DNA from: a virus
Length of the DNA: 64,000 nucleotides
Strand: one strand, 5' to 3'
Virus record (IMG/VR): IMGVR_UViG_3300047471_000162
Location: 32,001-96,000 of that record
The notes under the pieces are model-generated. The model worked only from the letters and a program-made list of their open reading frames with translations, searched no databases and was not told where the DNA came from. Shown here in pieces: positions 37,545-56,206 of the stretch. The stretch's first letter is position 1, and each line of letters begins with the position of its first letter. Position numbers and translations under genes: made by a program.

Positions 37545-38813
37545 ATGGCTGCCACTCTTGATGTAGATAAGCTCTTTGTATCTAAGATTGTGCAGGAGAA
37601 GGACATCACGCCTGTGGCAGATGTGCCCCCGTACTTTATCTTTGATCCTGAATACCGTGAGGCTTTCGAGTATATTCGAAAGTATTATGCTGAGCATGGA
37701 GAGGTTCCTACTCTCCGAGTGATGCTAGCGGATTGTCCGCAGGTAAAGCTTGTCCAAGTAGACGAGCCATGGAAGGATATTATTGACCGAGTACAAACCA
37801 AGTACATTGCGGGCATTCTGGAACAAGGGCTATCCAATGTAGTGGACAAGTATGAGGAAGGTGATATTGAATCTGCTGTCAATTTTCTAGGTGTTATCGT
37901 ATCCAAAGTGCACACGGCGGTACCCAATAGCCGAGACACCGACATCACACAAACAGGTAGTGACCGCCTTGCACGGTACCAGGAACGGCGTGACAACCCT
38001 GGAACCATGGTGGGTGTCCCAACAGGCTTTCCAACGCTGGACAGGGCCACTCAGGGGCTTCAGAAGGGTCAGCTGGTAACAGTCACTGGTCTGACTAAGG
38101 CCAGTAAGTCTACCTTGGCGCTACTGGTGGGTATGACTGTACAAAAGTCGGGAAAGCGTGTAGCGTACTTCACGTACGAGCAAACCTGTGAAGAGCAGGA
38201 GCGTAGATACGATGCATACAACGCGGGTATCAATGATAACCTGCTGAACAGTGGTAATGTATCCTCTGAGGATTGGAAGAAGGTAGTTGATGGTATTAAG
38301 GATACCGAGGAGCTACCGCCACTGATCTTCTGTGAAGATGCTATGACGGTTACAGCTGTGGGTGCCAAGTGTGATATCTATGATCCCGATGTAGTTATCA
38401 TCGATGGTACTTATATGCTTGAAGATGAGAACGGCGAGAACAAGGGATCTCCTCAGGCTCTGGCTAATATCGTGGCAGGCTTTAAGTTCATGGCCATGCG
38501 GCGTAAGATCTGTGTCATCCTTGTCACTCAGTCCACTCCCGCGCGAACCAAGGGTGAGACGTTGAACAACGACTCCATCATGGGCAGCCGTGCCTTCGTG
38601 CAGTACTCCAATGTGGTTATTGGTATTGAGCGTACTGAAGATACTAAGATGCGCAAGCTTAAGATCATCATGTCAAGGTCTTGTGCACCCTGCGACGTGA
38701 TGCTAGAGTGGGACTACGATACAGGAACCTTCGAAGAGATAGAAGGTTACGACATGGACGATGCACTGGAGAAGATGCTGGAGGATGACAACAAGTTCGA
38801 AGAAATTTACTAG
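37545..38813 (+). CDS. dnaB: DnaB-like replicative helicase
   Basis: GVPTGFPTLDRATQGLQKGQLV, YFTYE, VVIIDG, ILVTQ. Confidence 0.88.
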   Translation: MAATLDVDKLFVSKIVQEKDITPVADVPPYFIFDPEYREAFEYIRKYYAEHGEVPTLRVMLADCPQVKLVQVDEPWKDIIDRVQTKYIAGILEQGLSNVVDKYEEGDIESAVNFLGVIVSKVHTAVPNSRDTDITQTGSDRLARYQERRDNPGTMVGVPTGFPTLDRATQGLQKGQLVTVTGLTKASKSTLALLVGMTVQKSGKRVAYFTYEQTCEEQERRYDAYNAGINDNLLNSGNVSSEDWKKVVDGIKDTEELPPLIFCEDAMTVTAVGAKCDIYDPDVVIIDGTYMLEDENGENKGSPQALANIVAGFKFMAMRRKICVILVTQSTPARTKGETLNNDSIMGSRAFVQYSNVVIGIERTEDTKMRKLKIIMSRSCAPCDVMLEWDYDTGTFEEIEGYDMDDALEKMLEDDNKFEEIY

Positions 38814-39765
38814 CGGTTGGGGTACTCCAGTACCTGGGGATGTGCTAAGATGCTTAGAAGAACTGAGCATCACAGTATATAAACTCTCATACAATGAGGC
38901 TTGGTCCTTTTGTCCAGGGCATGAAAGAATCCTGGGCAAAAGAAACAATAAACCAGATAAGTGGTCCGTAAATATTGAAACCGGAATCCATAGTTGTTTC
39001 TCTTGTGGATTCTCCGGCTCCTTTGTCACTCTAGTTCAGGAGGTTAAGGGATATGGTCGAGCTGATGCAGAATCGTGGGTCCGTAGTCGTGGTGGAATCC
39101 AGCGAGTGCGACGAATACTGGCAGCTGCCTCTGGTAGTTTCGAGCCAGACACGAGGGTACGTACGTGGAATGAGTCGCGATTGGCGCTCTTCCAAGATCC
39201 TCCAGCTTCCGCACGCGATGGAAGAGGAGTTTCTGCGGGAAGTGTAGATCACTACGGTATACGTTGGTCGGATGGGGAGGATCCTTTCTGGGTTCTCCCC
39301 ATACGGGATCCTGAAGATGGGTCATTCTGGGGATACCAAGAGAAATCCGAAACTGGTTGGGTATCCAATAAGCCCTATGGTATTCAGAAGTCTCTGACTC
39401 TGTTTGGTATAGAGTGTTTTAATAGTCCGTTTGTCCTAGTACTTGAATCTCCATTGGATTGTGCCGTAGCATATACCAATGGAATTTTCGGAGCTGTATC
39501 TACTTTCGGTGCCAAGGTCAGCGATGCGCAGTTAACGCTGTTGCTTGATTTTGGCGTACCGATTATCTTTGGCCTGGATAATGACGGCGCTGGTATAGAA
39601 TCCTCTAGAAAGATTCGACAGAAGTTTATGGGGAGTGGCCATAGGATTAAGTTTCTCAACTACTCACACATTCCTACCAAGAAAGATATTGGTAGTGACT
39701 TAACTAAAAAGGAAATACAAAGGGCTGTACTTGAAGCCGTGCCTATGATAATGTATAGGCCATGA
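38785..39765 (+). CDS. DNA primase (zinc finger plus TOPRIM)
   Basis: CPGH..HSCFSC; LESPLD; GLDNDGAG; KKDIG. Confidence 0.88.
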   Translation: MTTSSKKFTSGWGTPVPGDVLRCLEELSITVYKLSYNEAWSFCPGHERILGKRNNKPDKWSVNIETGIHSCFSCGFSGSFVTLVQEVKGYGRADAESWVRSRGGIQRVRRILAAASGSFEPDTRVRTWNESRLALFQDPPASARDGRGVSAGSVDHYGIRWSDGEDPFWVLPIRDPEDGSFWGYQEKSETGWVSNKPYGIQKSLTLFGIECFNSPFVLVLESPLDCAVAYTNGIFGAVSTFGAKVSDAQLTLLLDFGVPIIFGLDNDGAGIESSRKIRQKFMGSGHRIKFLNYSHIPTKKDIGSDLTKKEIQRAVLEAVPMIMYRP

Positions 39766-41345
39766 CTTTCATTAAAACATTACGCCCCTACCAAGAAGCA
39801 GCTAGCGCTCTCATTGTCAATAGACAGAGGGCGCTACTTGCATTGGACCTGGGAACAGGTAAGACTATTGTTTCTATTCATGCTATTGAAGAGCTTAGAG
39901 ACGGAGGAATTTTAGATTGTGCGTTATTAATAATGTCTTCTTCACTGACATATCAATGGGCTGATCGTATAAAAGAATTTACTGATATTCCCCATGAGAA
40001 GATCGTTGTCATAGATGGGTCGTTAACACCAACCAAACGCAAGAAGGCGTATGAGGAAGCCTTGCGGGATCGCCCTGCCTATGTCATCATGGGCATCAGA
40101 CAGGTGGTCACAGACATTGACTTTGTAAAAAAGCTCAAGCCTGATCTGGCCCTGGTTGATGAAGTGACATCCATAAAAAACTTTAAGCCGCAGCAATCAA
40201 AGGTGATTAAGAAATATGTAACTGCGCCTTATCGTGTTGGTCTTACTGCTGAGCCTATTGAAAACGGCAAGGCAGAGGAACTGTATTCCATAATGCAATG
40301 GATTGATCCTAGCCTTTATGGTAGTTGGCAGGACTTCGAAGACACCTACATCATTCGTAATTCCTACAACATCATTACAGGGTATAGAAATGTAGACGAG
40401 ATGAATAAGATTCTCATGACCGCTTGTGTGAACAAGAGACGTGATGACAAAGATGTTGCTACGTTTATGCCAACTGTAGAAGAATACGATATCTATGTGG
40501 AGATGGATAATGCTACCAGGGACATCTATGAACAAATCGCGCAAGACCTCTTGCGAGAACTCAGAAATAGCGGACAGCGGGCTGTTCTCGATCTCGCCGG
40601 ATACTACTCTGGTGGAGGAGAAGCAGGAGAAGACCCTTCAGCAGGACGGGCGGCATCGCGGCTTACGGTACTCCATCTTCTCACGGACTCACCGTGCCTC
40701 TTAGAAGCCTCTGCACGGGCCTACAACGACCCAACAGACCCTAGAGGTAGCGCGTATGCTGCACAGCTCTTAGAGGCTGGGAGACTGCCCTCTGAGCCCC
40801 TCCTGGGTGCCAAGATAGAAGCGTGTGTGGAACTGGTGGATGAGTACCTGTCTTCCAATCCAGCTCACAAGGTGATAGTCTTCGCTCGGTTCAAGGGGGT
40901 ACTTCCCATCCTGGCCAAGCAACTTGACAAGTATGGCTCAGTACTATTTACTGGAGATCTTAATGGAAAGCAGCGAGCTGAAGCCATACAGTCGTTTGGA
41001 TCAGATCCTTCTACCAGAATTTTTCTTTCGTCTGATGCTGGAGGATACGGCGTCGACTTATACATGGCTTCTCACCTTATTAACTTCGATTTACCCCTAT
41101 CCTCAGGTGCCTTCAAGCAGCGTAATGGTAGGCACGTTCGGGCAAGTTCTACATTCAGAAACGTCTTCATTGACAACCTGATCGTAGCTGGTAGTGTTGA
41201 GGAATATCAGAAGCAACGACTTGCCTACAAAGCTCGTGTTGCAAATGCTGCGCTGACTGGACGGATGTCAGAGCAGGGTGGTAGAGTAACTAATGATGTA
41301 CAGAGCTTGACTAAGTTCCTAGAAAAGCAGTTGGAGAATAGATGA
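39762..41345 (+). CDS. SNF2-family helicase
   Basis: LRPYQ, DLGTGKT, VDEV, GLTAEPIEN, AGGYGVDL, QRNGRHVR. Confidence 0.88.
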   Translation: MTFIKTLRPYQEAASALIVNRQRALLALDLGTGKTIVSIHAIEELRDGGILDCALLIMSSSLTYQWADRIKEFTDIPHEKIVVIDGSLTPTKRKKAYEEALRDRPAYVIMGIRQVVTDIDFVKKLKPDLALVDEVTSIKNFKPQQSKVIKKYVTAPYRVGLTAEPIENGKAEELYSIMQWIDPSLYGSWQDFEDTYIIRNSYNIITGYRNVDEMNKILMTACVNKRRDDKDVATFMPTVEEYDIYVEMDNATRDIYEQIAQDLLRELRNSGQRAVLDLAGYYSGGGEAGEDPSAGRAASRLTVLHLLTDSPCLLEASARAYNDPTDPRGSAYAAQLLEAGRLPSEPLLGAKIEACVELVDEYLSSNPAHKVIVFARFKGVLPILAKQLDKYGSVLFTGDLNGKQRAEAIQSFGSDPSTRIFLSSDAGGYGVDLYMASHLINFDLPLSSGAFKQRNGRHVRASSTFRNVFIDNLIVAGSVEEYQKQRLAYKARVANAALTGRMSEQGGRVTNDVQSLTKFLEKQLENR

Positions 41346-41758
41346 GTGAATTAGTAATAAAGAATAAGGTGGCTCAGTATTTATTAATAAATACTGAGAT
41401 CAAGGAGTTACAGTCGTTACAGAAGCAGTTGAAAGAGCACTTAGAACCTGCTTTACTAGAGGCTGAGACGAACGCCAGGGGATCACGGGTGATAACCTTC
41501 ACAGACCCTCTGGAGATCGATGGGATCCGGTACAAGAGCTTGCAGAAGGTGCGCAAGGAGAGTAAGGTACTCAATGAGGAACGAGCACTGAAGTTCCTCA
41601 AGTCCGATCAAGCGTTCGAGTCTGCTGTCATTACAGTAGATCATGTTGATCAGGATGCCTTGTGGGATCTCTTCGTTCAGGATATGATCTCCCAAGAAGA
41701 ACTAGACAGTTTCTTCGATGTAACTGAATCATTCGCCTTCATGCCGACTAAGGAGTAG
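41342..41758 (+). CDS. Coiled-coil hypothetical protein
   Basis: GGAG RBS; overlaps the helicase stop. Confidence 0.6.
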   Translation: MSELVIKNKVAQYLLINTEIKELQSLQKQLKEHLEPALLEAETNARGSRVITFTDPLEIDGIRYKSLQKVRKESKVLNEERALKFLKSDQAFESAVITVDHVDQDALWDLFVQDMISQEELDSFFDVTESFAFMPTKE

Positions 41759-41765
41759 TTAACTA

Positions 41766-42068
41766 ATGAAGCGTTCTCTCAGGGTTATGGCCGCTGGTAT
41801 TATCACTGCGGGTATTATTCTTGGTGGTACTGCGTGCGCTGCTAGTGATGGTTCTGATGTCCTTCAGTACGGAGATTACGACTCTATGCACGTCTATCAC
41901 ACGTATCCGCAGCCGATTATCGTACATGTTACTCGAAAGGTTTATATGTCCAACACTACGATGTACAGTAACCCTACTGTTGAGCGTACTTATGTGAGTC
42001 ACCACACTTGCCGCACTACTACGACCCGTACCAACGGGCGTACTACCTCTGTTAGGCAGTGTTCCTAA
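41766..42068 (+). CDS. Putative lipoprotein
   Basis: Basic and hydrophobic signal with LGGTAC lipobox-like Cys. Confidence 0.55.
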   Translation: MKRSLRVMAAGIITAGIILGGTACAASDGSDVLQYGDYDSMHVYHTYPQPIIVHVTRKVYMSNTTMYSNPTVERTYVSHHTCRTTTTRTNGRTTSVRQCS

Positions 42069-42355
42069 TGGGTCGACATTCCGCAAATGGTACTGAGTAT
42101 TTTCGAGCAATAGTAATTACTTCTGAGGGATCTGAGTATTCTATTCATGGTCCTTATTCCACCAGGGCCGCAGCCAAGACGGAGGGAAAGAGAAACATTA
42201 CTTCTCATTCTTGGGGCGATCGATCTACTTGGACAATAAAGATTCAGGAACTTAAGCCCATTATAAAATGGGTAGATATTCCAGGCGTTCTATCTACTGA
42301 CCCTTGGAACTTGGAGCCTACAGCTCATCTTGAATGGATTGATGTAGATGGCTGA
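42068..42355 (+). CDS. Hypothetical protein
   Basis: TAATG coupling; GPYSTRAAAK motif. Confidence 0.6.
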   Translation: MGRHSANGTEYFRAIVITSEGSEYSIHGPYSTRAAAKTEGKRNITSHSWGDRSTWTIKIQELKPIIKWVDIPGVLSTDPWNLEPTAHLEWIDVDG

Positions 42356-42647
42356 AACACTTACTCTCTCAGCAGAGGAAATTGAGGAAGAGGATCTTAT
42401 TGAGGTTCTACTTTGGGAGAATCTAATTTGGGAGAAGTTTCCCACTGATCAGCACCGGTGGGAAGAGTGGCACACAGGTGTCACCAAATACAAGGATAAG
42501 TACTGGTGGGTTAACTGGGTCACTGGTCTCACGGAGACCCAAGACAATCAGTACTTTGAGTATGAATTGGCTGGAGATGGATCATTGACTCTTCATGAGG
42601 CAGAATCCTATGAGATTATCGAAACTAAGTGGAGGCGAAAGAAGTAA
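42348..42647 (+). CDS. Hypothetical protein
   Basis: HRW..GLTETQD motif; operon packing. Confidence 0.6.
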   Translation: MAETLTLSAEEIEEEDLIEVLLWENLIWEKFPTDQHRWEEWHTGVTKYKDKYWWVNWVTGLTETQDNQYFEYELAGDGSLTLHEAESYEIIETKWRRKK

Positions 42648-42868
42648 TGAGTGATGTAACTATTTCGGTGATGTCGGAGCTTGAGCTTGATGAGCTTATC
42701 TCTTCTCTAACAGAGAACCTGTGTCAGGAGCATCTGATTGATTTCATTGCACGTATCGATCAGTATGTCTGCGACTGGGATTTTACTGAGGCGCTGTACA
42801 AGCACTTCAAGGCAGAGCATAAGGTATACAAGTCAGAGGTAAAGCTAGACCCCTTTGTCGGTATCTAG
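42647..42868 (+). CDS. Hypothetical protein
   Basis: GGAGG RBS; TAATG coupling. Confidence 0.55.
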   Translation: MSDVTISVMSELELDELISSLTENLCQEHLIDFIARIDQYVCDWDFTEALYKHFKAEHKVYKSEVKLDPFVGI

Positions 42869-43026
42869 TACCCCGTGGCCCTATTACATCAAAGATAGGG
42901 CCACGGCTATTCACTTTGTATTAGATCCTGATTGTGGTTGTAGAAACTTGATGAATTGTTTATCAGTCAATCATAGAACTCTTCTTATAATTTTAGAAGC
43001 CTTGGATAAATGGGAGGAATACCACA

Positions 43027-43218
43027 ATGAAGGTACACGTTGAGTACAGTGTCCCGAACAGTCTCGTTCTAGAGCTAAATGAGAATGAGGTAGCAGCTTT
43101 TAATGCGGGCATGTCTACCGATGATTTCAACTGGTTTGCGGATGAGATCAGTGATAAGGTAGCTCAGCATGCTATGGCGTGGTTTGTTATCGATGAGGTT
43201 CGGGAGATTCTAGAGTGA
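43027..43218 (+). CDS. Small hypothetical protein
   Basis: GGAGG RBS. Confidence 0.55.
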   Translation: MKVHVEYSVPNSLVLELNENEVAAFNAGMSTDDFNWFADEISDKVAQHAMAWFVIDEVREILE

Positions 43219-43580
43219 ACAGTTGGCAGCATGCTGTATCTTCTGCCCATGAATGGGGTGGAAAACCTGAGGACTATCATCCTATTCATAAGAAGGTAGA
43301 CAGCTCTAAAGCGGGTATGGGAGACATTCGCCACCGTGCTCTATTTCATCACACTGAAGGTACCTTTCTCATGGAGGATATCTTTGGTCCATATCTACAG
43401 GTAGGCAAGCGCCAAGTTCCTGTCCGAGATATCGTTGAGCGTCATATCGTAGAGGACTTGGGATTTCTTCCTACCTTTCAATGGTGGGCAGAGCGAATGA
43501 ATATCGATCCTGCAATGAGTGGTACTAAGCGTAGGAAAATCAGAAACACACGAGATATTTTTGGGAGTAAGAGTGAGTGA
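43215..43580 (+). CDS. DUF6915-like protein
   Basis: HAVSSA..WGG..EDY..IH..DSSK..RHRALFHH..HIVEDLG. Confidence 0.7.
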   Translation: MNSWQHAVSSAHEWGGKPEDYHPIHKKVDSSKAGMGDIRHRALFHHTEGTFLMEDIFGPYLQVGKRQVPVRDIVERHIVEDLGFLPTFQWWAERMNIDPAMSGTKRRKIRNTRDIFGSKSE

Positions 43581-44064
43581 CGAGAGTGTTGACTTCCGTG
43601 GTAAGCTCCTGGTTGACAAGAGCTATAGTTATAGGTCACAGTTTGTAGAGCAACTGCCTATTACTGACTTGGCGCCCTATCTTGAGGCATCTTTTGCTAA
43701 GGGCGTGAAGGCAATCAAGTGGCAGCAGTATGTTCCTGGCTTTAATGATGGCGATCCTTGTGAGTTTACTATTAATGAGGTTTACTTCACAGGTAACGAT
43801 GAGGTGGCAAAGCTCTGGGCTGGAGGTCAGAGTGTTGATTATCTTGAGGACGAGAATACTTATCATGATCTAGATTATCTAGAGGATTATGTCTTTGCAT
43901 TGTTCAGTTACAGTGATCATCCTGATGGTCTTACTATTGATGCAGATGTTCCAATTGGTTCTGCTGCATTCGAATATGCTGTTCGTGCTGAGTTCGGGGA
44001 TAATACGGAGATTGTTATCACTCCAGAAGCCACGTACACTTTCGACTATGAGTGTGGCCACTAA
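43573..44064 (+). CDS. Acidic hypothetical protein
   Basis: WQQYVPGFNDGDPCEF motif; coupled to the DUF6915-like gene. Confidence 0.6.
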   Translation: MSDESVDFRGKLLVDKSYSYRSQFVEQLPITDLAPYLEASFAKGVKAIKWQQYVPGFNDGDPCEFTINEVYFTGNDEVAKLWAGGQSVDYLEDENTYHDLDYLEDYVFALFSYSDHPDGLTIDADVPIGSAAFEYAVRAEFGDNTEIVITPEATYTFDYECGH

Positions 44065-44072
44065 GGAGAACA

Positions 44073-44519
44073 TTGCAATCTAATTGGATGAATCAATTGG
44101 ATCAGTTCTTTCCGGGTTCTACAACTCCTCTGAACTTTGAAGAGATTATTGTAGACAAGGTTAAGGAACTTGACAGCTGGGATTATAAGCCTTATACATT
44201 TCTGGTCGGTGGAGTTGAGACTGAGTTCTTCTCCATCGGCCAACTCGGAAAGGCCCTAGGAGGACGTAGCCCTAACACCTTGCGTGCTTGGGAAAGAGAA
44301 GGTATAATAGGAAAATCACCATATGTTAAACCCTCCAGTACACCTAACGGACGAAGAAGAATGTACACCCGAGAAATGGTAGAAGGCTTAGTAGCAATTG
44401 CCAGAGAGGAGGGCATTCTCTGGCCGCATAAGGGCAGTCGTATTAGTAACACTAAATTTTCTGAGAGGGCTATCGAACTATTCAGGAGGTTAAGGCTTGA
44501 ACAAAAACAAATGCGATGA
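44073..44519 (+). CDS. MerR/BldC-type HTH DNA-binding protein
   Basis: [25 protein letters not shown]...RRMYT. Confidence 0.8.
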
Positions 44520-45066
44520 TACCTCATGTGATAGAGAGTCGCTGACTAAAGGTTTTTGTGATAAACATTACCGTCGTTGGAAGAAACACGGCGACTCTAG
44601 TATTGTGTTGACACCAACACGAAGTATCTGCACTATTGGCGAGTGCGCCAGATTAACTGATGCCCTTGGCTACTGCAAACTGCACTACACTAGATTTATA
44701 AAACATGGTGACCCATTAAAAACATTGCGTGTTACCTCACCCGCAGGGCAAGCCCGAACCATCACAAATAAATACGGCTATGTGTGGGTACCCTACAACC
44801 ACCAACATCCAAATTCTCGACCAGATGGCTACATAGCCGAACATACATTTGTGATGTCAGAGCACCTAGGAAGACCCCTTCTTCCACATGAAAATGTGCA
44901 TCATATCAATGGGCAACGCGATGATAACCGAATCGAAAATCTAGAACTATGGTCCAAGTCTCAACCTGCTGGACAACGTGTCCTGGATAAGGTAGCTTGG
45001 GCACGTGAGCTTCTAGGAATATACGGAACTAGCGAAGAGAAGGAAGTATATGGCAACCCGCAGTAA
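44497..45066 (+). CDS. HNH homing endonuclease
   Basis: Two C..C..C..HY repeats; [21 protein letters not shown]. Confidence 0.88.
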
Positions 45067-45376
45067 TGTCAACGAACTTCACACAGAGAGCGAAGGAACT
45101 ATTCTTAAGCCTGAGACGACAGTGACAGTAGCTCCTGATAGTATGAACGCTATGAAGGTATCTATTTCTCGTACTTTCAAGATTAATATGGGCAATTACG
45201 AGTCAATGGATTCTTTTGTATCCGTGACTTTGGATGTAACTGAGGGTAGTGATCTAGAGGAGCTGGCTACTAAGTTCGGCGAGACTCTTGACACCCTACA
45301 GGCTCCTGATCTAGAATTGGCCCATCACTTGACCAAGGAACGTAACTCCCTTGTCAAGATTCTAATTGAGAAGTAA
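45050..45376 (+). CDS. Conserved phage protein
   Basis: KINMGNYES motif; upstream of SSB. Confidence 0.6.
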
Positions 45377-45422
45377 TCAACTCCACTTACGCTCTATAGC
45401 GACCATATAAGGAGAATAATTT

Positions 45423-46193
45423 ATGGCAAAGATGACTCGTACTCGTGTTGCTCCGGCTGAGGACTATGACGAGACCAGTCCTGCGGGATCCGATTCGGAA
45501 ACTCAGGATGAGAGTGACTCCAATCCTCATGCTGCTCCAGAGATGAAGCGAAGCGGTATTCGTCGCCCCTCTGGTCCTGTATCCTCTGGCTGGGGAGCAC
45601 CACAGCAGAAGCGAGAGACAGTAAAGGCACCTTATCTCAAGGTTGATCGCACTAAGAAGATCATCAAGCTTCTGGATGCTGAGCCTTCTGTTCGTTTTAA
45701 GCAGCATTATCTGAAGACTCTTAATAAGTTCTATACCTGCATTGAGGTTTATGAGGGTAAGGACCATCCGGATAATGTTGACTGCCCTCTGTGTGACGCC
45801 GGGCACAAGGCATCCGTGAAGTTCATCATGAATGTTATCGAGATGGATCCGGATGCTACTGCTTACGAGGTAAAGACTTGGACTTTTGGTCCTGAGGTTG
45901 CTGGTCATCTTCAGGATATTGGGGAGGATCTCCAGGACAATGACCGTATTCCTGATAACGCCAAGACTATTGACGCAGAGCGTTGGTACTTCAAGGTTTA
46001 TCAGGTAAAGGCAGACAACAACCGAATCTCCAATAAGGTTGAGAAGATTTCTGCTTCTCTGCTTCCTGATGAGTTTGGTATGGAACCTCTGAATACCGAT
46101 GAGATTCTTGAACTGGGTAAGGTTCGCTATGGTGATGAGACTGTTTGGATCACCTCTGAGGACAAGCTCCGTGAGGCTGCCAAGTCCCTCTAG
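45423..46193 (+). CDS. Single-stranded DNA-binding protein (T4 gp32-like)
   Basis: QHY..YTC..DCPLC zinc site, FIMNVI; acidic disordered N-terminus. Confidence 0.7.
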   Translation: MAKMTRTRVAPAEDYDETSPAGSDSETQDESDSNPHAAPEMKRSGIRRPSGPVSSGWGAPQQKRETVKAPYLKVDRTKKIIKLLDAEPSVRFKQHYLKTLNKFYTCIEVYEGKDHPDNVDCPLCDAGHKASVKFIMNVIEMDPDATAYEVKTWTFGPEVAGHLQDIGEDLQDNDRIPDNAKTIDAERWYFKVYQVKADNNRISNKVEKISASLLPDEFGMEPLNTDEILELGKVRYGDETVWITSEDKLREAAKSL

Positions 46194-46197
46194 GCAC

Positions 46198-46258
46198 TAG
46201 ACACCGAAGCTCCGTACCTGATAAGCTAGCGCTTGTTAGGTACGGAGCTTCTTACTTT
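46198..46258 (+). terminator. Terminator hairpin with embedded promoter
   Basis: 21-bp stem 46206-46251; TAGACA-18-TAAGCT overlaps the left arm. Confidence 0.7.
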
Positions 46259-46269
46259 GGAGGATTAAA

Positions 46270-46515
46270 ATGCTTGAAGCAGACGGTAAGTTCTACATGG
46301 TCTACCGCTATTCCTACGATGGACAGAACAGATACACGGATGCCATCTATCCCGCGAGTGAGTATATTTTTGCTATGGATTATCTTCGTAAGCTTGCTGC
46401 CGAGGATGCTGCGTACAAGTGGAACACTGATGAAGAGCTAAAGAAGATTAATCCGGGTCAATATTGTTATGAGGTTGTGTACTTTGAAGAATTGACTATG
46501 AATGAGGAGCTGTAA
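46270..46515 (+). CDS. Hypothetical protein
   Basis: GGAGG RBS. Confidence 0.6.
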   Translation: MLEADGKFYMVYRYSYDGQNRYTDAIYPASEYIFAMDYLRKLAAEDAAYKWNTDEELKKINPGQYCYEVVYFEELTMNEEL

Positions 46516-48796: not shown

Positions 48797-48913
48797 CTAA
48801 TGAGTATGCGGAAGACCAGAAGTTCAAGTACCATGTCCTTAACCATAGGGAAGCTAAATGGCCCGGCACTTGTACATGGTGCCGCAAAGAAGTAGATAAG
48901 AGAAAGTAAACAT

Positions 48914-49336
48914 GTGATTCGTGATCCTTTCGAAGAGGTGGAACCTCTGGAGCCCTTGGGTATCCATGAGGTTCTTACCTCCCGTGCCAAGCGTTCAATT
49001 ATGTGGGATCTTATCGGTCCCCATAAAATGTGGAATTATTCAGAGAAATATGGTCAGAATCCTGCCAGTCCCGATGTGCTACACCGGGAGTATCTTGATA
49101 TGGTTGAGAGAAAGAATCTTCTCTTGCCGTTGAGTAATGCTCTCCCTTTGTTATGTTATATCGCTGCTGAATCTGCTACGGAAGCGATCATTGCCTCTGA
49201 TGAGTCCTTCGCAGGAATATCGGATGAGGATCGAATGAAGTTCAGGATGCAGAATGTACAATTAGGTTCTGTTATCACTGAGTCTGTTGTTAGCCACCTA
49301 ATTCAGAATGGCTTAATTAAATATGGAGGATATTAA
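48914..49336 (+). CDS. Hypothetical protein
   Basis: ORF in the operon after polA. Confidence 0.6.
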   Translation: MIRDPFEEVEPLEPLGIHEVLTSRAKRSIMWDLIGPHKMWNYSEKYGQNPASPDVLHREYLDMVERKNLLLPLSNALPLLCYIAAESATEAIIASDESFAGISDEDRMKFRMQNVQLGSVITESVVSHLIQNGLIKYGGY

Positions 49337-49725
49337 TGAGCTTTTGGGCTGAGAAGTTAAATGGTATTACTAATACAACACCGACTCCTCTACCTGTTTC
49401 CCGAGAACTATACGGGATATATACCAACCCTGTCGCACAGCCACAGACAGTATCCACACAGCAGGAATATATCCCAACTGTTAGAATGACTCAGGGCAGT
49501 ACCTGCCCGGGTTGTGGAAGTGATAAGTATCTTGGGCGTATAGGTGAGAGAGCAGTATCTTGCGCAGAATGCGGGTATCATCCCCGCTTTGAACAGACAG
49601 GTTATGGCACTCCCAGTCTCCGTGCGGAATCAGGAGCAGTAACACCAGCACGTCAGTACCATGGTGGCCAAACTATGCAGAAGTCTATCGCTATCCTCAA
49701 TCTGGGTGGCGGAGAACATATCTAG
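49336..49725 (+). CDS. Zinc-ribbon protein
   Basis: CPGCGS..CAECGY. Confidence 0.65.
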   Translation: MSFWAEKLNGITNTTPTPLPVSRELYGIYTNPVAQPQTVSTQQEYIPTVRMTQGSTCPGCGSDKYLGRIGERAVSCAECGYHPRFEQTGYGTPSLRAESGAVTPARQYHGGQTMQKSIAILNLGGGEHI

Positions 49726-49774
49726 TAATAATTGAATAGTAAAATTTCCAACTACTATCTCCTGGAGTAAAGTC

Positions 49775-51385
49775 TTGCCTACAGTTATGTCTACATTTGC
49801 CTCAACGGTTTATAAGAATAAGTACGCACATCCCGGAGAGGAGTGGGAGGATACTGCAAGACGCGTAGTGGAAACTGTGGTTAGTCCTCATTTCCCTGAG
49901 GATGTCGCGGAGTTAACCCAAATTGTTATTGATCGTAAGTTTATTCCAGGAGGAAGATACTTATACGCTACTGGAAAGTCTTTCCATCAGACTCAGAACT
50001 GTCTTCTTCTTACAGTGGAAGATAGTAGAGAGTCTATTTCGCACCTATTCGAACGAGTAAGTTCTGGTCTTATGACTGGAGCAGGTGTGGGTATTGTATG
50101 GTCCAAGTTGCGTGAAAATGGCGCAGCAGTTAATGGAATGGGTGGAAAGTCTACAGGACCCGTAGCCTTTATGAAGGCTGTCAATGAGATTGGCCGCAAT
50201 ATTATGCAGGGTGGTTCTCGCCGCTCTGCAATTTGGGCCGGTCTCCATTGGAATCATCCGGATGTCTTTGAGTTTATGTCTGTAAAGGATTGGCCAGAAG
50301 AGATTGTAGCTATGAAGGCAAAGGACTTCAATGCTATAGCTCCCATGGATATGACCAATATATCTATTATTCTTGATGACTTATTCTTTGCAGCATTTAA
50401 TGATCCTACATATGATTCCCATGATTGGGCGCAGAAGGTATATTGGACAGCTGTGGAGAAGATGCTTTCTACGGGTGAGCCAGGGTTTTCTGTGGATGTT
50501 GGTAAGCATGCTGGTGAACACTTACGTAACGCCTGTACAGAGATCACGTCTGCTGATGACAACGACATCTGTAATCTTGGGTCCATTAATATGGCTCGCG
50601 TTGAATCTCTCGAAGATATGCAGAGGATTGTAGAGTTAGCTACTCGTTTCCTTCTCTGTGGAACTCTGTATTCCAAGGTTCCTTATGCAGAGGTAGCTAT
50701 TACGCGTACTAAGAATCGTCGCTTGGGCTTGGGTCTTATGGGTGTACACGAGTGGCTAGCCGTACGTGGGAAGTCCTACGCGCCCGATACAGAGCTTCAA
50801 AAGTACCTGGAGGTATACCAGCAGTCCCTGTTCATCGCAGAGCGAGCAGCAGACCTTCTAGGCGTTTCTAGACCCATCGCAGCGACTGGCGTAGCTCCCG
50901 CTGGGACGATTGCTATCGTGGCGGAGACCACCAGTGGTGGAGAGCCCGCATATGCACTAGCATTCAAGCGTCGTTATCTTAAGGGCAAGATCTGGAAGTT
51001 CCAGTATGTCATTGAGAATTTTGCCAAGAGACTGGCAGAGCTGGGTGTTGATCCTGACACTATCGATACCGCCTTTTCTCTTGCCAAGGACCCCTCTCGT
51101 AGGCTAGAATTTCAGGCATGGCTACAGCAGTTTGTTGATCAGGGTATCTCTTCTACTGTCAATCTCCCCGCGAAAGACAAGCAGGAGTTTACAACCGAGG
51201 AATTTGGCACTACACTGATGCAGTACTTGCCCAAGCTACGTGGAGTTACTGTCTATCCTGATGGTGCGCGCGGCGGTCAACCACTTACTGTGGTACCTTA
51301 CAGTGAAGCAATCGACTGGGAAGGTTATGAGTATGAAGAGTGGAGTAACGAGAATGCCTGTGCAGGTGGCTCCTGCGGTGTGTAA
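49775..51385 (+). CDS. nrdJ: Compact class II (B12-type) ribonucleotide reductase
   Basis: FIPGGR, QNC, GGSRRSA, NACTE, CNLGSIN, APAGT, C-terminal CAGGSC; no nrdB nearby. Confidence 0.85.
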   Translation: MPTVMSTFASTVYKNKYAHPGEEWEDTARRVVETVVSPHFPEDVAELTQIVIDRKFIPGGRYLYATGKSFHQTQNCLLLTVEDSRESISHLFERVSSGLMTGAGVGIVWSKLRENGAAVNGMGGKSTGPVAFMKAVNEIGRNIMQGGSRRSAIWAGLHWNHPDVFEFMSVKDWPEEIVAMKAKDFNAIAPMDMTNISIILDDLFFAAFNDPTYDSHDWAQKVYWTAVEKMLSTGEPGFSVDVGKHAGEHLRNACTEITSADDNDICNLGSINMARVESLEDMQRIVELATRFLLCGTLYSKVPYAEVAITRTKNRRLGLGLMGVHEWLAVRGKSYAPDTELQKYLEVYQQSLFIAERAADLLGVSRPIAATGVAPAGTIAIVAETTSGGEPAYALAFKRRYLKGKIWKFQYVIENFAKRLAELGVDPDTIDTAFSLAKDPSRRLEFQAWLQQFVDQGISSTVNLPAKDKQEFTTEEFGTTLMQYLPKLRGVTVYPDGARGGQPLTVVPYSEAIDWEGYEYEEWSNENACAGGSCGV

Positions 51386-51522
51386 TGTTTGAGCTATTCT
51401 GGGATATCTTTTGGATAATTATGGGTTTTGTAGCCCTAGCGCTGCACTGGCCAGTTCTATTGGCTGTATTCTTCTTTATCCTTGCTGGAGTAGTCTGGTT
51501 AGATATTGATGATCTTTTTTAA
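51385..51522 (+). CDS. Small membrane protein (not in ORF track)
   Basis: 45-aa hydrophobic ORF with TAATG coupling. Confidence 0.5.
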   Translation: MFELFWDIFWIIMGFVALALHWPVLLAVFFFILAGVVWLDIDDLF

Positions 51523-51538
51523 AAGTGCTAGTTATCAC

Positions 51539-51587
51539 TAGGCAAATGTCAGCAGTCCCTGCTAAGGTTGAGGTCTTAGCAGGGACT
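51539..51587 (+). promoter_or_regulatory. Hairpin with embedded promoter upstream of recA
   Basis: Perfect 13-bp stem AGTCCCTGCTAAG/CTTAGCAGGGACT; TAGGCA-18-TAAGGT. Confidence 0.65.
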
Positions 51588-51611
51588 ATGTCTTTAAGAG
51601 GAGATAAAAGT

Positions 51612-52661
51612 ATGGCGTTAAATGATGGCGTGTCTACCCTTATTGCTCGACTAAATAAGCAGTTGGAGAAGGATGGCAACCCACTTCTCACAACTGCTTC
51701 CGATATGTTTGTCCCCAAGAAGTTTACATCTGGTCTATTGTCGTTAGATGTAGCGCTTGGTGGTGGGTGGCCGGGAAATCAGTGGGTTGAAGTATACGGT
51801 AAGGAATCCAACGGTAAGACATCTATTATTCTTCGTACGATTGCAGCTAATCAGGCTATTGATCCACATTTCATGACTTTTTGGGTAGCTTCTGAATACT
51901 ATGACAAAGAGTGGGCTATCCAGAACGGTGTAGACACTGATAGGGTCGTAGTTATGCCTACCTCTAATATGGAATTGGGCTACGAAATGTTAATGGAGGC
52001 TGCAAAGTCCCATGAGTTTGACTGCTTAGTTCTAGATAGTTATCCTGCTCTTTCAGCTTCCGAGGAGGAGAAGAAGGGCATGGATGAAAACACCATGACT
52101 CTGGGAGCTAGACGAACTGGTCAATTCTTCCGTAAGGTAGGGGGTACGTTCACTAGTGATCGTCCATATATTGGGTTTTTTGTTAACCAGTTACGTGACG
52201 CCGTGGGTTCTTTTTCCCCTTATGGTACTCCTACCACTACTCCTGGTGGAAAGGCGAAGAACTATGCTTTTTATCAGAGAGTTTTGGTCTCTCGTGACGA
52301 TTGGATTAAGGAAAAGGTAGACAATAAGGGAACCATTGAAGTAGGCCAGACCAATAAGTACAAGATGGAAAAGAATAAGGCTGCCGCTCCTAGAGCTGTG
52401 GCTGAGGCTGATTATTACTTCTTGCCTTCTGCTGATAAGGGCTTTGGTCCAGGCCAATTTGACACAGTCAAGGACATCATTACAATGGCTGTACTCTTCA
52501 AGGTAGTTCGCAGAGGTGGTGCATGGTTCTACTACACCCCAGCAGACAGTGAAGCTGAGTTGAAGTGGAACGGCCGCGATGCTATGGTGGAGGCAATTCG
52601 TAGTAACCTTGAGTTGCAAGCAGAGATTACTAAGTTAACTCTGGAAATCGCTACTCAATGA
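51612..52661 (+). CDS. recA: RecA/UvsX-like recombinase
   Basis: SLDVALGGG.P, EVYGKESNGKT, VLDS, NQLR, TPGG, KNK, GAWF. Confidence 0.92.
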   Translation: MALNDGVSTLIARLNKQLEKDGNPLLTTASDMFVPKKFTSGLLSLDVALGGGWPGNQWVEVYGKESNGKTSIILRTIAANQAIDPHFMTFWVASEYYDKEWAIQNGVDTDRVVVMPTSNMELGYEMLMEAAKSHEFDCLVLDSYPALSASEEEKKGMDENTMTLGARRTGQFFRKVGGTFTSDRPYIGFFVNQLRDAVGSFSPYGTPTTTPGGKAKNYAFYQRVLVSRDDWIKEKVDNKGTIEVGQTNKYKMEKNKAAAPRAVAEADYYFLPSADKGFGPGQFDTVKDIITMAVLFKVVRRGGAWFYYTPADSEAELKWNGRDAMVEAIRSNLELQAEITKLTLEIATQ

Positions 52662-52668
52662 GGCTATT

Positions 52669-53061
52669 ATGGCTCCTATCGCAACACCTGGTCTTAAGAC
52701 CATAATTGTTACTGGTACTTACCAGAATGCTGTATCCGGGGCGGGTGAGACAGGGTTTGTTAACTTTATCCCATCCGTCCCTTCCCTCACGGATATAACT
52801 GATCATGTTGAGCTAACAATTCAGCCATTCAGTGCCCCATTACCAGGGACTATTGGTGGAGGAAATAATCAGGGTGGTAATGGACACTTTGCTATTACTA
52901 TTCCTACAACAGACAATACGTCTATGTATCCACAGCAATTCACGTACACAATTGAAGAGCTAGTGTCCAACATGGCTAGTAGAACTACTAGAAATGTACA
53001 GATTTCATCTACTCTTGGTTCTACTGTGGATATCACCACAATTTTGCAACCTTATTTGTAA
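52669..53061 (+). CDS. Beta-rich virion-type protein
   Basis: VTGTY..G.V.F.P..F.ITIPTTD..FTYTIEE resembles N-terminal anchors of actinophage tail proteins. Confidence 0.5.
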   Translation: MAPIATPGLKTIIVTGTYQNAVSGAGETGFVNFIPSVPSLTDITDHVELTIQPFSAPLPGTIGGGNNQGGNGHFAITIPTTDNTSMYPQQFTYTIEELVSNMASRTTRNVQISSTLGSTVDITTILQPYL

Positions 53062-53079
53062 CACTAATTGGAGGCACTA

Positions 53080-53703
53080 ATGCAGTTCGCGAAGTGGAAG
53101 TCCATTCCCCGCCTTTCCAAGGAGGCTATGGTGATCACAGAGAAGATTGATGGTAGTAATGGCTGCATCATCATTGAGCCCTGGCGTGAGGATGCTAATT
53201 ACGATAGTAACTATGTACTTACTATCACCCTCAATGGTGAGAAGTATTTCTTTGCTGTTCAGTCCCGTAATCGCTTTATCACTCCCGTGGATGACAACGC
53301 TGGCTTTGCTCGCTGGGCAGTGAAGAATGCTGAGGGTCTTATCGAGACGCTTGGCTATGGTAAGCACTATGGCGAGTGGTGGGGCAGTGGTATCCAGAGG
53401 AACTATGGTCTCTCTGAGAAGCGCTTTAGTCTCTTCAACGCTCCCCGCTGGCATGAGGCTATCAGTTACCTGTTTGCTACCACCCCAGTGGCTGAGCTTC
53501 GTACCGTTCCGCTGCTCTATACTGGTCGCTTCGACCTTGACAAGTTGACTGCGGCAAGGGAGACTGTATCTAAGGGTTCAGTCGCTTCTCCCACCTTCAA
53601 GGGTAGTGCCGAGGGTGTGGTAGTGTACCTGCGTGAGGCTGATGTCAGCTATAAGATCCTGCTTGAGAACGATGACATCCACAAGTGGCAGGTTACAGAG
53701 TGA
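53080..53703 (+). CDS. RNA ligase (Rnl2/Rnl5-like)
   Basis: TEKIDGSN, SRNR, YGEW, FSLFN, EGVVV, YKI. Confidence 0.82.
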   Translation: MQFAKWKSIPRLSKEAMVITEKIDGSNGCIIIEPWREDANYDSNYVLTITLNGEKYFFAVQSRNRFITPVDDNAGFARWAVKNAEGLIETLGYGKHYGEWWGSGIQRNYGLSEKRFSLFNAPRWHEAISYLFATTPVAELRTVPLLYTGRFDLDKLTAARETVSKGSVASPTFKGSAEGVVVYLREADVSYKILLENDDIHKWQVTE

Positions 53704-53954
53704 TCAACGAGCCCGACTATGGCTGGACACCGCACAAAAACACTGATAAGGTAGACCTTGCTGCGGCGCTAGAGTATGTACGACGTACAATCTGCTGCTA
53801 CTCCCTAGACATTGAGCGAGATGTTCGCTGCGATTGTAAGTACGGTCTGTCTATTGAAGATGGAGAGCGACGGGGTGTAGGATCTGAGCAGACAGGTTGT
53901 CCTGAACTTCGAGAAGTTATCTATTTACTACTGCATGGAAATACTGATAATTAA
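53700..53954 (+). CDS. Cys-rich hypothetical protein
   Basis: CDCKYG..EQTGCPELR. Confidence 0.6.
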   Translation: MINEPDYGWTPHKNTDKVDLAAALEYVRRTICCYSLDIERDVRCDCKYGLSIEDGERRGVGSEQTGCPELREVIYLLLHGNTDN

Positions 53955-53972
53955 TAACCAGGAGGTTCAATA

Positions 53973-54149
53973 ATGAGTGTTCCAACTCCCTTGTCTTGTC
54001 CGGGATCGTCAATGGCAGACCCTCACAAGTACAATCTCGTTCCAGGCAAGGGTGATGAGTTTGTATGTGACCGTTGTAAGCGTACTGTTAAATACGATAG
54101 CGTGTCACGAAGCTTTAAGGTTATCTATTCTGGAATGACGCCAAAGTAG
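53973..54149 (+). CDS. Micro-protein with CxxC (not in ORF track)
   Basis: GGAGG RBS; CDRC. Confidence 0.55.
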   Translation: MSVPTPLSCPGSSMADPHKYNLVPGKGDEFVCDRCKRTVKYDSVSRSFKVIYSGMTPK

Positions 54150-54186
54150 TTGCTTGTATCACCATCCTCTAGTAGGATGCTGGTAC
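54150..54186 (+). promoter_or_regulatory. Promoter overlapped by an imperfect inverted repeat
   Basis: TTGCTT-17-TAGGAT; GTATCACCATCCT/AGGATGCTGGTAC. Confidence 0.5.
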
Positions 54187-54213
54187 TGGTCACTACTACC
54201 AAGGAGGCTATAA

Positions 54214-54381
54214 ATGTACGAAACGATGTACAACACTCTAGTTCTTGTTGATACTGGCATCATGTCTTATCTAACTGGTAAGGTGTTTCTTGACCAGCTG
54301 TGGGAGAACTTCGGAGAGATGTTCCTTCGTTTTAATGCTTATGCCCTGGAGCTGGACGAGAGTCGTAAGGAGAACAAGTAA
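54214..54381 (+). CDS. Small hypothetical protein (not in ORF track)
   Basis: AAGGAGG RBS; 55 aa. Confidence 0.6.
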   Translation: MYETMYNTLVLVDTGIMSYLTGKVFLDQLWENFGEMFLRFNAYALELDESRKENK

Positions 54382-54554
54382 TGTTGGCACACGAGTTGAT
54401 GACTCTCCTTGAGAATGAAGACCCGAACAAGGAGGTCCGTATCAAGCTAGAGCGTTTCTGTGGTGCGGGTGGTTGTGACTGTACTTCGGGTACATATGAC
54501 TATGAAACCATTGATGTGGATACTGAAGGTCACGATTTTATTGTGATCTCCTAA
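54381..54554 (+). CDS. Small hypothetical protein (not in ORF track)
   Basis: AAGGAG RBS; TAATG coupling; 57 aa. Confidence 0.6.
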   Translation: MLAHELMTLLENEDPNKEVRIKLERFCGAGGCDCTSGTYDYETIDVDTEGHDFIVIS

Positions 54555-54569
54555 TTAAAGGAAAATTAA

Positions 54570-54920
54570 ATGGCTACATTAAAAGATAGCCAAAAGCAGG
54601 AAAAAGCCCTCGCCCGAAAGGTCGGGGGCTCTGTCAATTCTGGCTCAGGAAATGGTTGGATTAGAAAGGGAGATGTACGTTCTGAAGATGAACTATGGGA
54701 ACTAAAGATTACTTCAGCTAAATCTTATAGTCTAAAAGATGCTGAGCTTATAAAATTGAATGAGCAAGCACTAAGGGATAGACGAATCCCGATCTTTCTG
54801 GTAGAGTTCATGTCTACGAACAACTCATACGTTATTCTCACAAAGGATGACTACATGACTCTGAGGGAAAGAGCAGATATTGGTAATGAAATTACGAAGC
54901 GGGGCTCCCCGTTGGTTTAA
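54570..54920 (+). CDS. PD-(D/E)XK nuclease, Holliday-junction-resolvase-like
   Basis: E..GSGNG..KGDV..ELK pattern. Confidence 0.7.
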   Translation: MATLKDSQKQEKALARKVGGSVNSGSGNGWIRKGDVRSEDELWELKITSAKSYSLKDAELIKLNEQALRDRRIPIFLVEFMSTNNSYVILTKDDYMTLRERADIGNEITKRGSPLV

Positions 54921-55215
54921 TGAGGATAATCCAGATAGGGAAGCAAAGTGTGTACGGTTTCCAGCCACCCGAGATTATGACCCATGGTATGGAGATTCTG
55001 ATGATCCCGATGTAGTGGACGAGACAAATGAGGCTAAGCATATCTGCTTAGGTACATATGATTCCCGCCCGTGCCCTTTGCTTTCTTTATGTTTAGAATT
55101 CGCCATGAATAATAATGAGCGCTATGGAGTTTGGGGTGGATTATCTCCAGATGAAAGAGCACAGTTACGAAAGGACCGAAGAAATCGCAACGTTCAAGAC
55201 AGGCTGGGGACCTAG
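54880..55215 (+). CDS. whiB: WhiB-family transcription factor
   Basis: Four Cys (C..AKHIC..CP..CL) plus GVWGGLS..ER and a basic tail. Confidence 0.9.
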   Translation: MVMKLRSGAPRWFNEDNPDREAKCVRFPATRDYDPWYGDSDDPDVVDETNEAKHICLGTYDSRPCPLLSLCLEFAMNNNERYGVWGGLSPDERAQLRKDRRNRNVQDRLGT

Positions 55216-56206
55216 GCTCAGCGGACGACTAGCAGATTATGCTAATGCTTCTAAGGGAACTCTACTTCTAGGAGATATCCAAGCACATATGATCAAGGAA
55301 GCTTCTAGACCTAGCACACGTAGACAAGACGTTATACACCCCTCTGAGATGGCCAAGACCGGTTGGTGTCCCAGAAGTACCTACGAGCGGATTAAGGCGT
55401 GTAGAGACGCCTCTGACGCCTTCCTGAAGCCTACTGAGCGTGTAGGCGTGCAGCTCCTGAACATCTTCGATGAGGGGCACTACATCCATGACAAGTGGCA
55501 GAAGCGTCTTCGAGACATGGGAGACCTTTGGGGCGACTGGCTCTGTGAGTCCTGTGGAGTAAAGACAAGGAGAGCACTATACCCCCAGAAGTGTTGGGAT
55601 TGTGACAGTACCCTAATGAGCTATGCAGAAGTTCCTATGCGTTATCCGAAATTGACTATTAGTGGTCATGCTGATGGTGCTATTCCACGTTTGAATGCCC
55701 TGATTGAGATAAAGTCTGTAGGCGTTGGCACAGCTAGAATAGAAGCACCTGATATTTATAAGGCAAACTCTGAGGGACAGAAGATTGATCTTCAGGGCTT
55801 GTGGAAGAGTATCAAGGAACCTTTTCCTGCTCACGTTAAGCAGGGCCAATTGTATTTGGCCATTTGTAAGCAGATGGAACTTGATTTCACTAAGATTATC
55901 TTTCTTTATGAGTCCAAGTTCAATCAGGGTGCCAAGGAATTCGTGGTTGACTACGATCCCTCTTTGTCGTATCCTCTACTCCAAGCCGCTGAGTCCATCG
56001 TCTCAGCTCTGGAGGGCTTGACAGACCCACCTAAGTGTCCCTACGATATCTGTAAAGAGTGTGAAATTTATGGCACAAAGAAGTCAGACGTTACAACAGG
56101 GTTGGGGAACTCCTCAGAACAAAGTGAAGTTGAAGGGGCTCAGAGCTCCGGAACGACCATCAGACGAAGCGCCAGACCTACCAGCAGGGTTATCCGACCT
56201 TCCTGA
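55151..56206 (+). CDS. Cas4-like PD-(D/E)XK exonuclease
   Basis: HPS..WCPR, GHYIH, GHADG, EIKS, QGQLY, C-terminal C..CKEC; inserted zinc ribbon. Confidence 0.8.
   Translation: MKEHSYERTEEIATFKTGWGPRLSGRLADYANASKGTLLLGDIQAHMIKEASRPSTRRQDVIHPSEMAKTGWCPRSTYERIKACRDASDAFLKPTERVGVQLLNIFDEGHYIHDKWQKRLRDMGDLWGDWLCESCGVKTRRALYPQKCWDCDSTLMSYAEVPMRYPKLTISGHADGAIPRLNALIEIKSVGVGTARIEAPDIYKANSEGQKIDLQGLWKSIKEPFPAHVKQGQLYLAICKQMELDFTKIIFLYESKFNQGAKEFVVDYDPSLSYPLLQAAESIVSALEGLTDPPKCPYDICKECEIYGTKKSDVTTGLGNSSEQSEVEGAQSSGTTIRRSARPTSRVIRPS
56018..56047 (+). promoter_or_regulatory. Internal promoter inside the nuclease gene
   Basis: TTGACA-18-TACGAT just upstream of the 56070 ORF. Confidence 0.6.

Follow-up and report, generated by a model that had tools for sequence, protein, structure and literature searches.

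A Gly-Trp motif in the disordered leaders of replication and recombination proteins of an actinophage group, a candidate docking peptide

Introduction

[quoted passage not shown] The question is raised by a 64,000-nucleotide stretch of viral DNA (here called the window), which comprises bases 32001-96000 of a phage genome that is 112.9 kb long in a single contig and has 44.5% G+C (IMGVR_UViG_3300047471_000162). An earlier note on the window had pointed to a W-G-x-P peptide near the N-termini of four of its proteins and proposed that it recruits them to a common hub, namely the phage DnaB, RecA or PolA, or a host protein. The proteins of replisomes and of recombination are as a rule linked through a small number of short docking peptides, among them the SSB C-tail, the clamp-binding motifs and the PIP box, and the recognition of each one explained many interactions together. 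Here, we follow the peptide through related phage genomes. The motif is real, translated, predicted to be disordered, under selection at the protein level and nested in its distribution. Judged from the sequences compared, it is oldest, and almost universal, in the SSB.

The nearest named relatives of the window phage, identified by tblastn, are the Streptomyces phages BRock, GiJojo, Alone3, LuckySocke and pSt2308. Their genomes, 112-116 kb in length, are syntenic with it in the replication module, and their proteins are 31-55% identical to those of the window phage. For the comparisons below we gathered 14 primase-centred and 80 Cas4-centred loci from IMG/VR, took the SSB and primase from 35 further genomes, and added 38 SSB homologues from a protein collection. 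Neither a megablast search of the phage collection with 10 kb of the window nor a scan of viral contigs with the single SSB protein as query gave matches.

Results

Four unrelated proteins share a conserved Gly-Trp motif

The four core copies all lie on the plus strand and translate in frame where they had been placed. They read SGWGTP in a DnaG-type primase (motif 38812-38829, gene 38785-39765), SGWGAP in a gp32-like zinc SSB (45585-45602, gene 45423-46193), TGWGPR in a Cas4-type PD-(D/E)xK exonuclease (55199-55216, gene 55151-56206) and QGWGTP in a UvsY-like helical-hairpin protein of 164 residues (56097-56114, gene 56070-56564). Three of the copies are thus closely alike (GWGTP, GWGTP and GWGAP), and each has a hydrophobic residue four positions before the tryptophan: Phe in the primase and Cas4, Val in the SSB and Leu in the UvsY-like protein. 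As the earlier note had supposed, the carriers have different folds and belong to one replication and recombination network, and the peptide has the character of a lineage-specific, translated short linear motif.

Within the window itself, the statistical signal is slight. There are three matches to GWG.P in the six translated frames, each within the open reading frame (ORF) of a carrier, and three matches to the DNA word GGYTGGGGWNCNCC where 0.46 are expected. A proteome-wide check of the first 65 residues of the ~201 ORF-called proteins showed modest enrichment for GWG (4 copies against 1.2 expected) and none for plain GW (14 against 15.8). Since enrichment in this single genome is modest, the case rests on comparison across genomes. 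Chance as the origin of the motif, despite the weak single-genome statistics, is ruled out by conservation over 47 genomes.

The orthologues keep the motif, with G-W held against divergent flanks in all four folds. In 15 BRock-like genomes, the tryptophan is invariant at the N-termini of the primase, Cas4 and UvsY-like proteins while the residues around it diverge. Of the W-G-x-P core originally put forward, the tryptophan stands, but the trailing Gly and Pro are confined to part of the clade, and the conserved core is instead G-W with a hydrophobic residue at -4. Position profiles built from distinct sequences give the consensus hydrophobic-x-x-G-W-(G/D/E)-(A/S/P), located in a disordered leader with many basic and Ser/Thr residues and immediately before the first conserved block of each carrier. 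Relative to the tryptophan at position 0, present in all, position -4 is hydrophobic (V/I/A; F/L in the window), -3 and -2 are S/Q/K/R/T, -1 is Gly in 106 of 110, +1 is G/D/E and +2 is A/S/P. Copies can also be alike within one group of phages. The four carriers of one group (G006-G010) read VSSGW, VSNGW, IQSGW and ISSGW, and in a sister clade (clade 2) the primase K-G-W-D-A-V-G-T-P resembles the UvsY-like K-G-W-E-A-V-Q-T-P.

Several lines of evidence place this conservation in the protein. All four glycine codons (GGC, GGT, GGA and GGG) are used before the tryptophan, as expected if selection does not act on the DNA, and we rejected a DNA-level element on this synonymous variation together with the coding-type codon-position variability described below for the gene overlaps. 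Start codons lie upstream of the motif in all four genes, and true starts downstream of it were rejected for each, on the basis of orthologue starts, Shine-Dalgarno (SD) sequences, the TTG or ATG codons of Cas4 relatives, in-frame stops and the conserved MAQRS beginning of the UvsY-like protein. The proposed disorder of the leaders is borne out in the AlphaFold2 models. The predicted local distance difference test score (pLDDT) is below 50 over residues 1-61 of the SSB and about 51-72 over residues 1-20 of the UvsY-like protein, in both cases ahead of the fold.

Carriage of the motif is nested

We scored carriage of the motif in 47 related phage genomes, in the order SSB, primase, UvsY-like protein and Cas4. 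The SSB is the only carrier in 14 genomes (pattern 1000), is joined by the primase in 7 (1100) and by the primase and UvsY-like protein in 9 (1110), and stands with all three in 11 (1111), to which 3 genomes with an RWG copy or a copy displaced by an insert can be added. The remaining 3 genomes lack the motif (0000), 2 of them having Phe or Tyr in place of Trp. The pattern is perfectly nested, running from the SSB (nearly all genomes) through the primase and the UvsY-like protein to Cas4, which carries the motif in the BRock-like clade only. None of the 47 genomes has the motif on another protein without the SSB copy, on the UvsY-like protein without the primase copy, or on Cas4 without the UvsY-like copy.

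The SSB has a gp32-type core and an invariant Gly-Trp in its leader

The SSB gene begins at ATG 45423, preceded by a strong SD sequence. The protein has no Pfam match, and a profile search against PDB sequences returned no matches; its identity comes from AlphaFold2, Foldseek and hhalign. The core is predicted with pLDDT above 90 and matches the core of RB69 and T4 gp32 (2a1k, 1gpc, 8gme) with a Foldseek probability of 1.0. Comparison with T4 gp32 by hhalign gives an E-value of 1.2e-5 and pairs the CPLC block of the phage SSB with the CPVC of gp32. The protein therefore has the gp32 core fold, an oligonucleotide-binding (OB) fold with a zinc subdomain, and the His/Cys3 zinc ligands are in place: H95, C106 and C124 do not vary among 35 aligned homologues, and C121 reaches at least 90% conservation.

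Ahead of this core, the SSB is organised as a LAST-like basic tip (MAKMTRTR), an acidic disordered stretch (approximately residues 10-40) and a basic stretch that holds the motif (residues 55-60 of 256), with the core starting at about residue 65. The tip is itself conserved, 34 homologues beginning MAK(I/M)(S/T)R and M1, A2 and R6 being at least 90% conserved in the 35. G56, W57 and G58 are the sole invariant residues before position 70. More broadly, with N-termini anchored on profile alignments, G-[W/F] is found 10-15 residues ahead of the core in 55 of 56 SSB loci, with GWG, GWD, GWE and GWS as variants, usually followed by A/G/S and then Y/F/V/L, although SSB identity falls to approximately 22-25% across the compared genomes. 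The C-terminus is a folded helix (residues 246-255), and the acidic C-terminal A domain that recruits partners in gp32 is absent.

The primase copy

The primase starts at ATG 38785 with the N-terminus MTTSSKKFTSGWGTP, and alignments of its orthologues start at the same methionine. Its 5' end overlaps the 3' end and stop of the DnaB gene by 29 nucleotides, an overlap also present in BRock. The zinc ribbon (CHC2-type) and Toprim architecture is supported by Pfam Toprim_2 above cut-off, Zn_ribbon_DnaG below cut-off and PHROG 47 (DNA primase) at an E-value of 2e-30. The Toprim_2 match covers residues 227-312 of 334, such that the protein ends soon after this domain. Across 32 distinct primase N-termini the tryptophan is invariant and the glycine before it is present in 30. 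In Alone3, a LAST-like tip rich in Arg, Ser and Thr (MMRSTRRTTSGWG) stands directly ahead of G-W, one of several such tips among the carriers other than the SSB.

The Cas4 and UvsY-like copies lie in gene overlaps

Because the Cas4 and UvsY-like copies both fall inside gene overlaps, their reading frames had to be tested. The gene directly upstream of Cas4 encodes a WhiB-family regulator (54880-55215, plus strand; Pfam Whib, E-value 3e-12), and the GWG codons of Cas4 lie within its 3' end in a different frame. The Cas4 assignment rests on PHROG 2506 (exonuclease, E-value 1e-43), PHROG 1706 (CRISPR/Cas-associated) and conserved cysteines in an N-terminal CP and a C-terminal C-x4-C-x2-C. The overlap of the two genes (55151-55215) is found in all BRock-like phages, and we compared the positions of stops relative to GWG in 14 phages. 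Relatives of the window Cas4 have a TTG or ATG start with a purine-rich SD sequence 3-7 codons before GWG. In 7 loci an in-frame stop occurs a few codons further upstream, so no alternative start is possible there. As the corresponding codon of the window reads ATC, ATG 55151 is the probable Cas4 start; a rare ATC start would be the alternative. Pairwise differences by codon position within the overlap, taken in the Cas4 frame, are 0.25/0.24/0.53, which is the signature of coding sequence. The public annotation of the BRock Cas4 gene appears to begin too late, so that the motif goes unseen there.

All BRock-like Cas4 N-termini keep GWG. Distant Cas4 homologues have RKPLKPSG with no tryptophan and retain the following helix, K-P-[ST]-G-R-[IL]-A. 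The leader sequence KTGWGPR (55196-55216) also resembles KTGWCPR (55355-55375), which lies at the conserved N-terminal cysteine motif 53 residues on and shares 6 of 7 residues. A recent duplication is unlikely to explain this, as the codons differ.

The UvsY-like protein has no match in Pfam or PHROG and was recognised from its AlphaFold2 model (pLDDT 90.8). Its best PDB matches are T4 UvsY chains, led by 4zwt_A with a target-normalised TM-score (TMt) of 0.74 and a root mean square deviation of 2.7 over 109 columns; the Foldseek E-values are weak (0.15-0.3), and helical hairpins are common. The gene adjoins that of the Cas4 exonuclease, and a RecA-like gene lies at 51525-52661. The first 137 nucleotides of the UvsY-like gene (56070-56206) overlap the tail of the Cas4 ORF, and the motif lies within this overlap. 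In GenBank, all four of BRock, GiJojo, Alone3 and pSt2308 have a product of 115 residues that starts after the Cas4 stop and is named as hypothetical, 'DNA binding protein' or 'SSB protein'.

The true start of the UvsY-like gene seems to be ATG 56070, 46-49 codons before the GenBank starts, for four reasons. In all five phages, the 49 codons upstream of the annotated start contain no stop, and their first residues are a conserved MAQRS (56070-56216 in the window; 39030-39167, 38940-39077, 38434-38571 and 38454-38591 in loci L001, L002, L003 and L004). Codon-position variability within the overlap is 0.24/0.24/0.53 in the UvsY-like frame, compared with 0.24/0.19/0.48 downstream, and the third position of the Cas4 frame is not the variable one. 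The family has a length of 150-180 residues (about 165) in every clade. Finally, residues 21-45 are modelled with pLDDT 89-96. On the same evidence, the last ~45 codons of the Cas4 ORF are an unselected run-on.

In 24 distinct UvsY-like N-termini from the BRock-like clade and clade 2, G-W is invariant and occurs as GWG, GWL or GWE. Distant UvsY-like proteins keep the basic tip and have no tryptophan. A third clade (L057, L059, L069 and L040) has another conserved leader, R-N-x-T-L-[EQ]-M-G-L, at the G-W site.

Variant copies and neighbouring genes

The protein encoded upstream of the DnaC-like loader (33053-33475, plus strand) is a probable carrier of a variant. Its LWGSP (33080-33094, plus strand), which the earlier note had listed, proved to be conserved in BRock-like orthologues as an acidic N-terminal D-L-W-G-[SD]. 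A DNA pattern for G-W-[DE]-A-x has just 2-3 matches in each clade-2 genome, always on the gene strand, and the extra match is a fifth carrier. This protein has an HTH_36 domain and a disordered linker containing GGKGWDAVRAPR with a canonical GKGWDAV copy, and through its C-terminal domain it is a homologue of the window protein encoded ahead of the loader. The clade-2 form is about 329 residues long with HTH_36, linker and C-terminal domain (L176 712-1701, genome G003), and the BRock-like form has 140-160 residues and the C-terminal domain alone. We considered the window ORF at 32476-33066, directly upstream with a 14-nucleotide overlap, as the missing helix-turn-helix half, and rejected it: it encodes an HNH endonuclease (Pfam HNH_3) and is probably a mobile insert.

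Two further proteins have related sequences. The zinc-ribbon protein at 49336-49725 has TGYGTP in its C-terminal half (49597-49614, plus strand), and E-Q-[ST]-[GA]-Y-G after the ribbon is kept in all five phages as a candidate Tyr variant. In four named relatives (L001 17981, L002 17966, L003 17960, L004 17963), a C-terminal G-G-W-G-[PE]-H is conserved in a Cys-rich protein whose gene lies two upstream of DnaB; its shorter homologue in the window (36521-36901) is without this segment.

Discussion

We propose that the Gly-Trp motif is a docking peptide that ties proteins handling single-stranded DNA (ssDNA) to a common partner, most likely the SSB itself, and we put the probability of this at roughly 45%. 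Binding of the motif to a protein is a step that we infer, as is the identity of that protein as the SSB. The SSB is the most economical hub because it is the sole carrier in 14 genomes and combines the gp32 fold with a LAST-like tip. The nested distribution likewise points to the SSB as the centre of the system, and not to the DnaB, RecA or PolA suggested earlier. Binding to their own SSB is established in model systems for primases, UvsY, exonucleases and loader proteins alike.

The acceptor on the SSB could be a site on the core or filament, or the long acidic disordered stretch. The motif may have been an SSB self-interaction element at first, N-terminal to the core like the cooperativity (B) domain of T4 gp32, and the primase, the mediator and the nuclease may then have acquired copies of it one after another. 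These client proteins would mimic the SSB's own N-terminal peptide and either dock on SSB-coated ssDNA or compete for it. A fuller version, which we hold only tentatively, is that the primase, mediator, nuclease and loader-associated protein each gained a copy of an SSB self-association peptide, and that it lets them occupy an acceptor that a cooperative filament leaves free at one end only, or else invade the filament. The code would then have spread stepwise from the SSB to the primase, the UvsY-like protein and Cas4. If true, the recruitment code would be mimicry of SSB cooperativity; in model systems, an acidic SSB tail is read by pockets on the partners.

Several points weigh against SSB-centred docking. 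Enrichment inside the single genome is weak, and the count alone would not support the claim. In the AlphaFold2 model of the SSB monomer the motif does not dock on its own core, a prediction that is uninformative for binding in trans. By analogy with T4, the LAST-like tip could be the real cooperativity element, leaving G-W without that role. G22-F23 of T4 gp32 and G56-W57 of the phage SSB are not aligned by position, which leaves homology between them as a lead only. The D-L-W-G copy of the protein upstream of the loader sits in an acidic context, unlike the other copies. Lastly, the nested pattern amounts to about three gain events on one lineage and is suggestive, not statistical.

The same conservation and disorder would be expected of a docking peptide whose hub is another protein, with all carriers including the SSB as its clients. 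Candidates are the DnaB-like helicase, an SNF2-type helicase, Pol I, the RecA-like recombinase, and the host beta clamp or RNA polymerase. There are precedents, since in the clamp-binding and PIP box systems the carriers are all clients of a separate hub. Moreover, the 334-residue primase has little room for the C-terminal helicase-binding domain of bacterial DnaG and would therefore need another tether. Nevertheless, the motif is kept in the 14 genomes where the SSB alone carries it, so any such partner must matter for the SSB alone, and the motif departs from the clamp-binding consensus QL[SD]LF. We consider a hub of this kind unlikely. We rate as somewhat less likely again a flexible nucleic-acid anchor, in which the basic and Ser/Thr-rich leader would lie on phosphates and the tryptophan stack on bases to add a sequence-independent grip on ssDNA. 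Every carrier acts on ssDNA, Lys/Arg and Ser/Thr residues usually stand before the motif, in the manner of the LAST motif of T4 gp32, and Lys-Trp-Lys-type peptides are known to stack on ssDNA. This stacking alternative, also raised in the earlier note, appears weakened by the Asp or Glu that directly follows the tryptophan in about one third of the SSB and primase lineages and in the clade-2 UvsY-like proteins. The Cas4 copy is also without a basic context, and the variant upstream of the loader is acidic. A protein pocket fits better than base stacking because of these acidic residues (GWDAF, GWEAV) and because the invariant glycine and the hydrophobic residue at -4 suggest a shaped site.

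It is improbable that the copies share no function at all, each tryptophan standing at the edge of its fold for structural reasons of its own and the likeness arising from coincidence and post-hoc choice of the motif. The modest GWG and absent GW enrichment would agree with this, as would the position of the motif beside the first conserved block in every carrier. Against it, four to five unrelated folds share G-W, the hydrophobic -4 and similar residues at -2 and -3, and copies are alike within a clade (primase GWDAVGTP and UvsY-like GWEAVQTP in clade 2). AlphaFold2 leaves the motif unpacked on the SSB and UvsY-like folds, and there are related Cas4, primase and UvsY-like proteins that work without the motif. 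A signal in DNA or RNA (GGYTGGGG) acting at gene junctions as a ribosome-binding or regulatory element, with no role for the peptide, is largely refuted and merits almost no weight. Three of the four copies do lie at or near gene junctions or overlaps, and the DNA word is over-represented. Yet the glycine codon before TGG takes all four forms, the residue after the tryptophan varies, and variability in the motif frame is highest at the third codon position in both the WhiB/Cas4 and the Cas4/UvsY-like overlap. The SSB copy is 160 nucleotides inside an unambiguous gene, and all copies are in frame with conserved upstream starts.

If the motif is a docking peptide as we propose, the single tryptophan in each protein is a testable handle on how replication and recombination are organised in a large group of actinophages, some of which (BRock, GiJojo and Alone3) can be cultivated on Streptomyces. 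The comparison also corrects gene starts, the UvsY-like gene and the BRock Cas4 both appearing too short in public records in a way that conceals the motif.

The closest parallel is with T4 gp32, whose N-terminal B (cooperativity) region binds to the core of the adjacent gp32 (PMC11551737). The likeness is of a short element N-terminal to a gp32-fold core, in a leader rich in basic and Ser/Thr residues. The phage SSB has this fold together with the zinc ligands, and its LAST-like tip MAKMTRTR is the counterpart of MFKRKST in T4 (NC_000866). It differs in that its invariant G-W lies about 14 residues before the core, has about 40 residues of acidic stretch between itself and the LAST-like tip, and aligns to no T4 residue, and in that the acidic stretch is N-terminal, the acidic C-terminal tail being absent. 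We know of no report, and found none, of T4 partner proteins that carry a copy of the B-domain peptide.

Other systems resemble the motif in mechanism more than in sequence. The bacterial SSB C-terminal tip (DDDIPF), the clamp-binding motif QL[SD]LF and the PIP box are likewise short, disordered, aromatic-anchored peptides in networks centred on an SSB or clamp. The SSB tip sits on the hub at the extreme, acidic-hydrophobic C-terminus and is read by pockets on its clients, whereas the phage peptide is N-terminal or internal, unrelated in sequence, and found on the SSB and clients alike. The phage consensus has neither the Gln nor the Leu-Phe of beta-clamp-binding motifs (QL[SD]LF or QxxLxxFF). 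In eukaryotes, the RPA70N-binding acidic and aromatic motifs of ATRIP, RAD9, MRE11 and p53 bring a similar short Trp/Phe peptide on unrelated proteins to one docking site of the eukaryotic SSB; these are acidic and helical, and the analogy is of mechanism only, with no homology implied. The GW/WG Argonaute hook shares the Gly-Trp core, the disordered setting and a role in protein docking, which for the phage motif is a proposal, but it consists of multiple repeats that bind Argonaute PIWI domains, while the phage motif occurs once per protein. Full-text literature searches found no description of the motif. Short peptides that dock on a replisome hub are already familiar, and what is new here is the sequence, its N-terminal position and its presence on both the SSB and its likely clients. 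The motif is unusual in these respects, and also because a comparison of living phage lineages lets one follow how it passed stepwise from one protein to the next.

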